From assembly GCF_044647545.1 (NCBI RefSeq), contig NZ_CP172818.1: DNA of 64,000 nt; one strand, written 5' to 3'. Positions 3,001 to 6,216 of this stretch are shown one piece after another (within the stretch, counting starts at the first letter, position 1; every line of letters starts with the position of its first letter). Made by a program: the position numbers and the translations under genes. The DNA comes from Escherichia coli. GTDB taxonomy: Bacteria; Pseudomonadota; Gammaproteobacteria; Enterobacterales; Enterobacteriaceae. The notes under the pieces were generated by a model, which saw only the letters and a program-made list of their open reading frames with translations, had not been told where the DNA came from and searched no databases.

Positions 3001-3650
3001 TCAGCCAGAACCAGCACGCGGGAAACCAGCTTATCAATGCCGCTCGCCGCTTCTGCAATGTTCTGCGCCAGCATATATGCCGGGGTGGTGACAATCTTAT
3101 TGTCTTCATCAACCACGATATCATCGACAGGACACGGCACATGCTCCGCGCCCATCTCTTCCAGCACTTCTGCGGTATCAATATCAGTACCGATGGTCAA
3201 ACGCAGCGGGAAATCGAAAATTTTCGGCAGCATCGCCGGGGCAATACACATAAAACCAAGCGGTTTTCCGGCCTGATGCATCGCTTGTGCCAGCGCCTTT
3301 AATTCACGGTCAACGGTGCATTCGCGACCAAGACTGGCAAAATTGCTTAAATTCTTCGCCGCGCCAAACCCCCCCGGCACAATCAACGCATCCAGTTCAG
3401 CGGCATCGGCCTGGGCCAGAGGACGGATTTCACCGCGCGTTATTCGTGCCGCTTCAATCAGCACATTGCGCGTTTCCGTCATCGCTTCGCCCGTTAAATG
3501 GTTGATAACATCAACCTGCTGCTTATCCGGTGCAAAGCAGACCGCCTGCGCACCGCTGCGTGAAATAGCTAACAACGTCAACACCGCTTCATGAATTTCA
3601 GAACCGTCATAAACGCCGCATCCGCTCAGAATTACGCCAATTTTCTTCAT
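2997..3650 (-). CDS. elbB: Glyoxalase ElbB (DJ-1/PfpI family)
   Basis: ORF 2997..3659; likely start is [16 protein letters not shown] (217 aa) three codons inside the track ORF. Confidence 0.9.
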
Positions 3651-3767
3651 TGTGATCATCCTTTCGCAATTGACTGAAACACATTAATTTTTTTAATAAA
3701 AATGCTACGCATCACACATTTAACTGATTCATGTAACAAATCATTTAAGTTTTGCTATCTTAACTGC

Positions 3768-3889
3768 GTGCGGCCTGAAAAACAGTGCTGTGCCCTTGTA
3801 ACTCATCATAATAATTTACGGCGCAGCCAAGATTTCCCTGGTGTTGGCGCAGTATTCGCGCACCCCGGTCTAGCCGGGGTCATTTTTTA
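3768..3889 (+). ncRNA. arcZ: Hfq-dependent small RNA ArcZ (RyhA/SraH), convergent with and overlapping the arcB 3' end
   Basis: Sequence gtgcggcctgaaaaacagtgctgtgccc ... gcgcaccccggtctagccggggtcatttttt matches ArcZ as I recall it, including the 3' seed region and intrinsic terminator hairpin plus T6; location between elbB and arcB as in K-12. Confidence 0.8.
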
Positions 3890-6216
3890 GTGGCTTTTGC
3901 CACCCACGCTTTCAGTACTTCTACGTCGTGACGCCACTCTTCTTTCATCTCTTCAATCCATTCACCGACGTTATCTTCCCAGGCGGGAAGGTCAGGAGAC
4001 TGAATTTGCTGACCCAGCTGTTGCAGATGGCGTAACCCCACTGACCCCGCCGCACCTTTAATTTTATGTCCTTCCTCAACAATGCCTTTTTTATCCTGCG
4101 CCGTCAGATTCGACTCCAGCACGCTGACATAGCCCGGCATCATCTTCTCAAACACCGCTAACCCGTCGGTGATCAGCTTCGGTCCTACAAGTTCGAGATA
4201 CTGTTCCAGCATGGGAATATCGAGCAATGCTTCTGATTTACTGTTCTCTTCTGTCGTCACCGTACTTTCCTCATCATCCTGGGTATCCCAGAATTTCTTG
4301 ATCATCGCGGTTAGCGCCGGAACAGAAAGCGGCTTACTCAGCACATCATCCATTCCAGCATTGAGGTACTCTTGTTTGTCTTTCAGCACGTTAGCGGTTA
4401 AGGCCACCAGCGGTGGTAAATCCTCGCGCGGATAACGCTTCGTCAGTTCACGAGAGATATCCAGCCCGGTCATATCTGGCAACTGAATATCCAGCAACAC
4501 CAGGTCGTATTCGCCCGGTTTAAACATCTCCAGCGCCGCCTTGCCGGTCATGGCGACATCAACGCTGTTACCTAATTTTTCCAGCACAGAGCGTGCGACA
4601 ATCACGTTCAGTTCAATGTCTTCCACCAGCAGCACATTCAGCGCCGGTAAAGGCATATCGTCTTCATCAAACGCATCATCAACCTCTTCTGCTACCGACG
4701 GTGCGTGGATCGTCAACGTAAAGGTTGAACCTTTGCCCTGTTCGCTGGTAACCGTAATATCGCCGCCCATATTTTTCGCCAGACGACGAGAAACGGCCAG
4801 ACCAATACCGGTGCCGGTGGCAGGTTTACCGCCATGACTGTCTTTCACCTGGTAATACATGGCGAAGATTTTATCCAGCTCATCCTGCGGAATGCCGATA
4901 CCAGAGTCTTCCACTTCAAAATGCAGCATATCGCCTTCATCGTAGCGCACGCGCACGGTAACCTGGCCTTGCTGGGTGAATTTGACGGCGTTACTGATGA
5001 GGTTCCACAGGATCTGCCGTAAACGCGTCCCGTCGGTAATGACCTGATGCGGTAATGGCAGCGTCGGCTCCAGATTAAAGCGCAATCCTTTTTGTTGCGC
5101 CTGCAAGGCGGAGAGATTTTCCAGATCGGCAAGGAAGCTGGTGAAATCAACCGGCTGATTATCAAGCTGGACCTTGCGCCGTTCCATCTTATCCATGTCG
5201 ATAATATCGTTGAAGATATTCCCCAGCGTGACGGCCGAAACATGGATGGTTTTGAGGTATTTTTCCTGCTCGGCGGTGAGTTCGGTATCCAGCAGAATGC
5301 GGCTCAGGCCGACGATACCATTCAGCGGTGTACGCAATTCGTGACTGATGGTGGAGATAAACGTCGTTTTGTCGCGGCTGGCCCGTTCAAGCGCATCCTG
5401 ATACCGCTTACGCTCGGTAATGTCGCGACCAAAGCCCATCAAACCGTGACGTTTACCCACGCGGTCGTAGTACGGCACTTTACGGATTTCAAAGCAGGCT
5501 TTGCGCCCGTCCGGGTAATCCAGCCACTGTTCATAGGTCAGTGACACATTATGACGGAACACTTTTTCATCGGTTTCAATGACTTTTGCGGCGGCTTCCG
5601 GTGAGTAAACATCAGCAGGTTTCAGGTGAACCAGTTGTTTTTCGCTTTTTCCGGTCAGCAGCTCCATCGCGCGGTTACAGCCGGAAAACTCTTTATCTTC
5701 GTTACGATAAAAAACCAGGTCGGGTGAAGCATCAAGGAAGGAACGTAAGAATGAGGATTGCTGCTCGAGCTGAATTTGTGTCTCTTCGCGCTCTTTGATT
5801 TCAATTTTCAGTTGGCCGAAGGTTTCCTGCAGTTCTGCTTCCGCTTTTTCACGAACGGCGATTTCCTGATTTAGCTGGGCAATATTATCTTTTAACTGAA
5901 CGTTGAGGCTCAAATCGCGCTCGCGCATCTCCTCCAGTTTTTGCACCAGTCGTGACAGACGTTGCCGTGACTCCTCCAGTTGCTCGACGACCACCGATAG
6001 AAAGTAGACCGCCCACGGCGTAATCAGCAAACCAAAGAAGATAGAACGAATAACATCAATGCTTTCGACCTGACCATGCAGCACCATGGTTACCGCCATT
6101 TGTACCACAATGGCAAGAACGACGAGGGCCAGCGCCAGCAACATTGAGAAGCGCACCAGACCTAACTTCATCATCAGGTCAACATAATACTGCGCCAGCA
6201 GACGAATTTGCTTCAT
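3880..6216 (-). CDS. arcB: Aerobic respiration control sensor histidine kinase ArcB
   Basis: 778-aa ORF with TM segments, PAS, HisKA (SHELRTPLNG), HATPase, receiver and HPt domains. Confidence 0.97.
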   Translation of the reverse strand: MKQIRLLAQYYVDLMMKLGLVRFSMLLALALVVLAIVVQMAVTMVLHGQVESIDVIRSIFFGLLITPWAVYFLSVVVEQLEESRQRLSRLVQKLEEMRERDLSLNVQLKDNIAQLNQEIAVREKAEAELQETFGQLKIEIKEREETQIQLEQQSSFLRSFLDASPDLVFYRNEDKEFSGCNRAMELLTGKSEKQLVHLKPADVYSPEAAAKVIETDEKVFRHNVSLTYEQWLDYPDGRKACFEIRKVPYYDRVGKRHGLMGFGRDITERKRYQDALERASRDKTTFISTISHELRTPLNGIVGLSRILLDTELTAEQEKYLKTIHVSAVTLGNIFNDIIDMDKMERRKVQLDNQPVDFTSFLADLENLSALQAQQKGLRFNLEPTLPLPHQVITDGTRLRQILWNLISNAVKFTQQGQVTVRVRYDEGDMLHFEVEDSGIGIPQDELDKIFAMYYQVKDSHGGKPATGTGIGLAVSRRLAKNMGGDITVTSEQGKGSTFTLTIHAPSVAEEVDDAFDEDDMPLPALNVLLVEDIELNVIVARSVLEKLGNSVDVAMTGKAALEMFKPGEYDLVLLDIQLPDMTGLDISRELTKRYPREDLPPLVALTANVLKDKQEYLNAGMDDVLSKPLSVPALTAMIKKFWDTQDDEESTVTTEENSKSEALLDIPMLEQYLELVGPKLITDGLAVFEKMMPGYVSVLESNLTAQDKKGIVEEGHKIKGAAGSVGLRHLQQLGQQIQSPDLPAWEDNVGEWIEEMKEEWRHDVEVLKAWVAKATKK

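Follow-up and report, generated by a model that had tools for sequence, protein, structure and literature searches.

The window analysed here, a stretch of 64,000 nucleotides (64 kb) of Escherichia coli DNA, carries the small RNA gene arcZ and, running towards it on the opposite strand, the sensor kinase gene arcB, and we read this locus, with a probability of about 0.92, as the canonical E. coli arcZ-arcB convergent pair with antisense-linked feedback. The overlap of the two genes is real, widely conserved and already known. Found in 2001, the sRNA has carried a K-12 annotation ever since, and functional studies of it date back to 2010. The features at the junction are given below in window coordinates.

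3768-3888, plus strand: arcZ gene, giving the 121-nt primary ArcZ sRNA (Rfam RF00081 match and identity with K-12 b4450)
3880-6216, minus strand: arcB coding sequence, a hybrid sensor kinase of 778 aa (NCBIfam NF008302 equivalog and K-12 annotation)
3862-3880, plus strand: Rho-independent terminator stem-loop of ArcZ (terminator scan, RNA fold and covariation)
3880-3882, minus strand: arcB stop codon TGA, between the ArcZ stem and the U-tract (ORF list, minus-strand sequence and K-12 annotation)
3883-3888, both strands: dual-use hexamer, U6 of ArcZ on the plus strand and AAA AAA (Lys-Lys) of arcB on the minus strand (sequence)

The identity of both genes was established by profile searches and by comparison with E. 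coli K-12. When the whole 64-kb window was searched, RF00081 (ArcZ) was the sole Rfam family above threshold, its full covariance model (positions 1-106) aligning to 3768-3875 on the plus strand with 120.8 bits and an E-value of 7.7e-28 (gathering score 66). Window positions 3768-3888 correspond to K-12 MG1655 arcZ (sraH/ryhA, b4450; 3350577-3350697), and all arcZ bases are identical between the two in the alignment (100%). The open reading frame at 3880-6216 on the minus strand is ArcB, aligned end to end with the NF008302 equivalog at 1483 bits (cut-off 838), and coincides with K-12 arcB (b3210), annotated at 3350689-3353025 on the strand opposite to arcZ. The preliminary description, made from the letters alone, had named the locus arcZ/arcB and had left the ArcZ identity to be verified by alignment; both the name and the identity hold. 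Among the features of an ArcZ gene, the model score, a convergent arcB neighbour, the conserved 3' core with the seed region and a Rho-independent terminator were found. The locus shares with K-12 its flanking genes (elbB and arcB), the 9-nt overlap, the terminator and the stop, and differs by two SNPs in the 301 nt compared, C versus G at 3705 upstream of arcZ and T versus C at 3916 within arcB. Of 5426 complete E. coli genomes, 5416 gave a match to a 361-nt query around the junction, 4884 of them at 99% identity or more.

The next minus-strand gene is elbB, and arcZ stands alone on the plus strand between arcB and elbB. The longest elbB frame begins at an ATG at 3659 (220 aa), whereas the K-12 annotation ends at 3350459, window 3650 (217 aa); the NCBIfam profile aligned from ElbB residue 4, which favours the shorter annotated start. 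A plus-strand frame of 62 aa at 3702-3890, which covers arcZ, had no family match and was treated as a chance ORF.

At the junction, the terminator scan placed the ArcZ stem at 3862-3880, with 8 pairs (6 of them G-C) and a loop of 3, followed by CATTTTTT. Read base by base, the element consists of A3862, CCCCGG (3863-3868), UCUAG, CCGGGG (3874-3879), U3880, C3881, A3882 and six U residues, with an A3862-U3880 pair closing the core stem 3863-3868/3874-3879, and the hairpin is contained in both the MFE and the centroid RNA folds. The preliminary description had put the hairpin and T-run at 3866-3889. The element itself is real, but it starts at 3862/3863, so that 3866 lies 3-4 nt inside the 5' arm, and 3889 is one base past the T-run, which occupies 3883-3888. 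The arcB stop had been located exactly, at 3880-3882, where TCA on the plus strand is TGA on the minus strand. Along the minus strand the junction reads ...GCC ACU AAA AAA UGA and then CCCCGGCUAGACCGGGG. The arcZ gene (3768-3888, plus) and the arcB coding sequence (3880-6216, minus) converge and overlap at their 3' ends, as had been claimed, the overlap being 9 nt long (3880-3888), as annotated in K-12; the arrangement had been called already documented, and it is found in a 2024 review (PMC11331407) as well as in the K-12 annotation. The claim that the terminator lies opposite the last arcB codons is correct for the spacer and the U-tract only: TCA and T6 face the stop and the two Lys codons, whereas the stem-loop faces the arcB 3' UTR.

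The scan found 1 terminator-like site against 0.5 expected in shuffles, which taken alone is weak evidence. That the feature is more than a chance occurrence follows from the Rfam E-value, from the covariation of the stem across species and from a mapped 3' end. Among 35 distinct hairpin sequences from at least 120 species, the stem stays paired; at two of its positions GC pairs are exchanged for AU pairs, and G-U pairs occur as intermediates. Published Term-seq data (Adams et al. 2021, PMC7815308, supplementary file 1) place a strong plus-strand 3' end at window 3887 (K-12 3350696), which appears under two of the conditions listed with the class 'internal arcZ, antisense arcB'. Thus, ArcZ ends within the arcB reading frame by experiment. 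The preliminary description had expected that 3'-end mapping would display both termini; that of ArcZ is there, whereas a minus-strand 3' end at the junction, as expected for arcB, is not among the Term-seq entries listed (PMC7815308), which is weak evidence. A second observation from this study lies further along the plus strand. Its supplementary file 2 (Adams et al. 2021, PMC7815308) reports a Rho termination region antisense to arcB at K-12 3351461, with a Rho score of 15.2 and p 9.7e-69, at window ~4652 and ~765 nt past the ArcZ terminator. Its exact position may be a windowing artefact, since scoring used windows of 800 nt, and the one concerned extends just far enough to include the abundant ArcZ 3' end. 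This suggests that transcripts antisense to arcB, whether they arise by read-through from ArcZ or in another way inside arcB, are normally silenced by Rho.

Because the G+C-rich stem at 3862-3880 is palindromic and folds equally well on either strand, and because shared terminators are common among convergent bacterial gene pairs, the hairpin could in principle work in both directions, as an intrinsic terminator shared by ArcZ and the arcB mRNA. We consider this very improbable and rejected it, as the minus strand lacks the U-tract: after the stem it reads UGCGCGAAUACUGCGCC / UGCGCGAAUACU, and the bases that would be needed for a minus-strand U-tract are part of the invariant ArcZ core. The terminator scan recognised the plus-strand terminator only, with no minus-strand terminator-like site in 3500-4100, and the Term-seq entries listed give no minus-strand 3' end at the hairpin (PMC7815308). 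The fold of the arcB 3' UTR (minus strand, 3900-3651) was no more stable than those of shuffles (z = -0.58) and contained no terminator-like element. Since no minus-strand terminator was found from arcB up to the promoter of arcZ, polymerases coming from arcB probably run on through arcZ, and arcB transcription probably either continues in the direction of elbB or is halted by Rho. In both cases the potential ArcZ:arcB duplex would be much longer than 9 bp.

Conservation of the junction was examined in loci L002-L121, which represent at least 120 species carrying the exact 32-nt ArcZ core and of which 118 could be scored for the position of the arcB stop. The ArcB C-terminus was located by tblastn and then extended to the stop codon, locus by locus. 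In 95 of the 118 species the stop, which reads TCA or TTA on the strand of ArcZ, directly follows the last G of the stem, with overlaps of 9, 10 and 11 nt accompanying U-tracts of 6, 7 and 8 in 12, 42 and 41 species, respectively; Yersinia aldovae (L002), which has a variant stem, displays the identical layout by eye and is additional to the 95. This placement is seen in Escherichia, Salmonella, Citrobacter, Enterobacter, Yersinia and Rahnella, and also in Erwinia, Photorhabdus, Xenorhabdus, Proteus and Providencia, at least four families in all. Our tally agrees with the 2024 review, which states that in Enterobacterales the 3' ends of arcZ and arcB usually have ~10 nt in common (PMC11331407), and gives numbers to that 'usually'. 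Compared with ArcZ of other Enterobacterales (Salmonella, Yersinia, Erwinia, Photorhabdus/Xenorhabdus and Dickeya), the processed core is invariant, and U(C/U)A and U6-8 come after the terminator; the E. coli U-tract belongs to the shortest class (6), most other species having 7-8, and the loop sequence differs, many non-Enterobacteriaceae having UUCG- or CUCG-type loops.

The overlap is, however, not indispensable, given that in ~22 of the 118 species it has shrunk to 2 nt or is absent while the ArcZ core and terminator are intact. An overlap of 2 nt is found in nine species (Morganella, Pluralibacter and relatives, and some Pantoea and Mixta), and about a dozen (Pantoea, Mixta and Chimaeribacter) have none, the two genes being 4 to 58 nt apart. 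Simple nonsense or frameshift changes account for the loss in Pantoea, Mixta, Chimaeribacter and Morganella; between the Pantoea loci L066 (...KS*) and L067 (...KSSDARKK*) one nonsense change (TCG to TAG) shifts the stop by 18 nt. The 2024 review also describes Pectobacterium carotovorum as having no arcZ/arcB overlap (PMC11331407); Pectobacterium is absent from the loci listed here. These losses, together with a coding-level overlap of merely 9 nt, would fit an overlap without a selected regulatory role, a by-product of tight convergent packing in which ArcZ matters only as a trans-acting sRNA. We regard this as unlikely, since most of the species, from at least four families, keep the stop at exactly this point between stem and U-tract, and since published reports describe an ArcZ-dependent loss of arcB mRNA and a reciprocal effect (PMC10948607, PMC3937726, PMC4281340). 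Moreover, loss of the overlap between the coding sequence and arcZ is not necessarily loss of antisense pairing, as transcription past the arcB stop may still yield a 3' UTR that is antisense to arcZ.

Several further observations were made on the same set of loci. The triplet T(C/T)A stands between stem and T-run in all of the at least 120 species listed (TCA in 82, TTA in 37, and TTA also in L002 with its variant stem). It is kept in the ~22 species whose arcB stop is elsewhere, even though loops and downstream DNA vary freely. The triplet may be under constraint from ArcZ itself, or it may simply be a relic of recent origin. Terminator loops are of two styles: those in Enterobacteriaceae are of 3-5 nt and A/U-rich (UCUAG, UUAAU, UAA), and those in Yersinia, Rahnella, Erwinia, Pantoea, Photorhabdus, Xenorhabdus, Providencia and Morganella are mostly tetraloops of UUCG or CUCG type on a 7-8-bp stem. 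Two loci labelled Enterobacter ludwigii (L062) and Enterobacter cancerogenus (L090) carry the ArcZ terminator ACCCCAGTTTCGACTGGGGT and an ArcB tail, AEREK...RKK, of Pantoea type; both features agree exactly with the ones in L066 and L067 from Pantoea and are unlike those of other Enterobacter loci, and these public records may be mislabelled or contaminated.

On the protein side, ArcB ends in KK* in 96 of the 118 species, with variable preceding residues (E, R, G, T, A, Q and others), and the KK encoded by AAA AAA is the sole conserved feature of the tail. The Lys-Lys tail would be most simply explained by a nucleotide-level need for the ArcZ U-tract. A stronger proposal is that the junction is jointly constrained and dual-coding, the triplet and U-tract being selected for ArcZ termination or Hfq binding and dictating the ArcB C-terminus, with a ribosome that terminates right at the foot of the hairpin complement gating the access of ArcZ to the arcB 3' UTR. 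We hold this proposal to be improbable; if true, it would couple arcB translation to antisense decay.

The remaining parts of arcZ concern its transcription and processing.

3733-3761, plus strand: probable sigma-70 promoter of arcZ (read from the sequence)
3787-3827, plus strand: ArcZ 5' stem-loop, with its arms at 3787-3794 and 3820-3827 (Rfam alignment, consensus structure)
3833-3888, plus strand: processed active region of ArcZ, ~56 nt (start placed from the published length)

The putative promoter comprises a -35-like GTAACA at 3733-3738, a 17-nt spacer and an extended -10, TGcTATCTT, at 3753-3761, ending 6 nt upstream of the transcription start at 3768. It was missed by our promoter scan because it matches 8/12 hexamer positions and the threshold was 9/12. 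An ArcA box was sought by eye in 3660-3767; minus-strand TGTTA/GTTAA-like repeats are present there, with a spacing that gives no clear fit to the 11-bp direct-repeat consensus. As for processing, Chao et al. reportedly gave the RNase E motif in 2017 as RN|WUU, and GA|UUU at 3831-3835 fits this motif, which we take to be a candidate cleavage site. A 56-nt form would start near 3833 and so coincide with the invariant core, the 32 nt from 3833 to 3864 (TTTCCCTGG...GCGCACC) that are matched exactly in at least 120 species. The 2024 review describes cleavage of ArcZ by RNase E to a 3' form of 55-60 nt (PMC11331407). Hfq dependence of the sRNA, regulation of rpoS, flhDC and others by the processed form, and repression of the arcZ promoter by ArcA-P at low oxygen are likewise described in the literature. 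An arcZ -10 promoter mutant is mentioned in PMC3937726, where the mention itself carries no coordinates.

On our reading, ArcZ is transcribed from 3768 on the plus strand and ends at the intrinsic terminator, whose stem-loop is just outside the arcB frame; its last bases UCA UUUUUU (3880-3888) are the reverse complement of the arcB Lys-Lys-stop. As ArcZ ends inside arcB and a translatable arcB mRNA must pass its stop into the hairpin region, the 3' part of ArcZ should be perfectly complementary to the arcB mRNA end. The preliminary description was right in deducing that the transcripts are complementary at their 3' ends, necessarily over at least 9 nt plus the extension of the arcB mRNA past its stop. 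This complementary segment would be the very one that forms, after RNase E processing, the Hfq-bound trans-acting regulator of rpoS and others. Pairing would allow ArcZ to destabilise the arcB mRNA and the arcB mRNA to lower ArcZ, according to the literature (Mandin & Gottesman 2010, as cited in reviews), and together with repression of the arcZ promoter by ArcA-P, likewise taken from the literature, would give a feedback loop from oxygen sensing to the RpoS stress response. Published statements on the junction vary in firmness. The two transcripts are said to 'negatively regulate each other' (PMC10948607, citing Mandin & Gottesman 2010), the effect of arcB on ArcZ is called 'speculated' in the 2024 review (PMC11331407), and in another account the mechanism 'remains to be determined' (PMC4281340).

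The mutual influence of ArcZ and arcB could also be due to transcriptional interference, that is, head-on polymerase collision or occlusion rather than RNA-RNA pairing. The genes converge with no spacer between them and arcB polymerases probably traverse arcZ; a single-molecule study (a 2022 bioRxiv preprint) reportedly proposed that collisions enforce termination at convergent genes, which we count in favour of interference. We see it as a minor rival of low probability, since ArcZ is described as destabilising arcB mRNA also when overexpressed from a plasmid, a trans effect (PMC3937726, a secondary source citing Mandin & Gottesman 2010). Pairing of ArcZ with the arcB mRNA remains the preferred explanation. 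In GadY/gadX and McaS/abgR, too, an sRNA gene is described as facing a protein gene in convergent orientation and as complementary to the mRNA of that gene at its 3' end (PMC4281340). The outcomes differ: GadY stabilises gadX mRNA, McaS leaves abgR unaffected, and for ArcZ a destabilising action on arcB mRNA is reported (PMC4281340). Unlike in the GadY and McaS cases, ArcZ is above all a trans-acting Hfq sRNA.

Taken together, the locus carries little weight as a discovery and serves as a clean positive control, in that a compact sense/antisense architecture was read correctly from raw sequence. For the Enterobacterales, the comparative tally puts figures on the 'usually' of the review, 95/118 for the position of the arcB stop and 96/118 for the KK* ending of ArcB.
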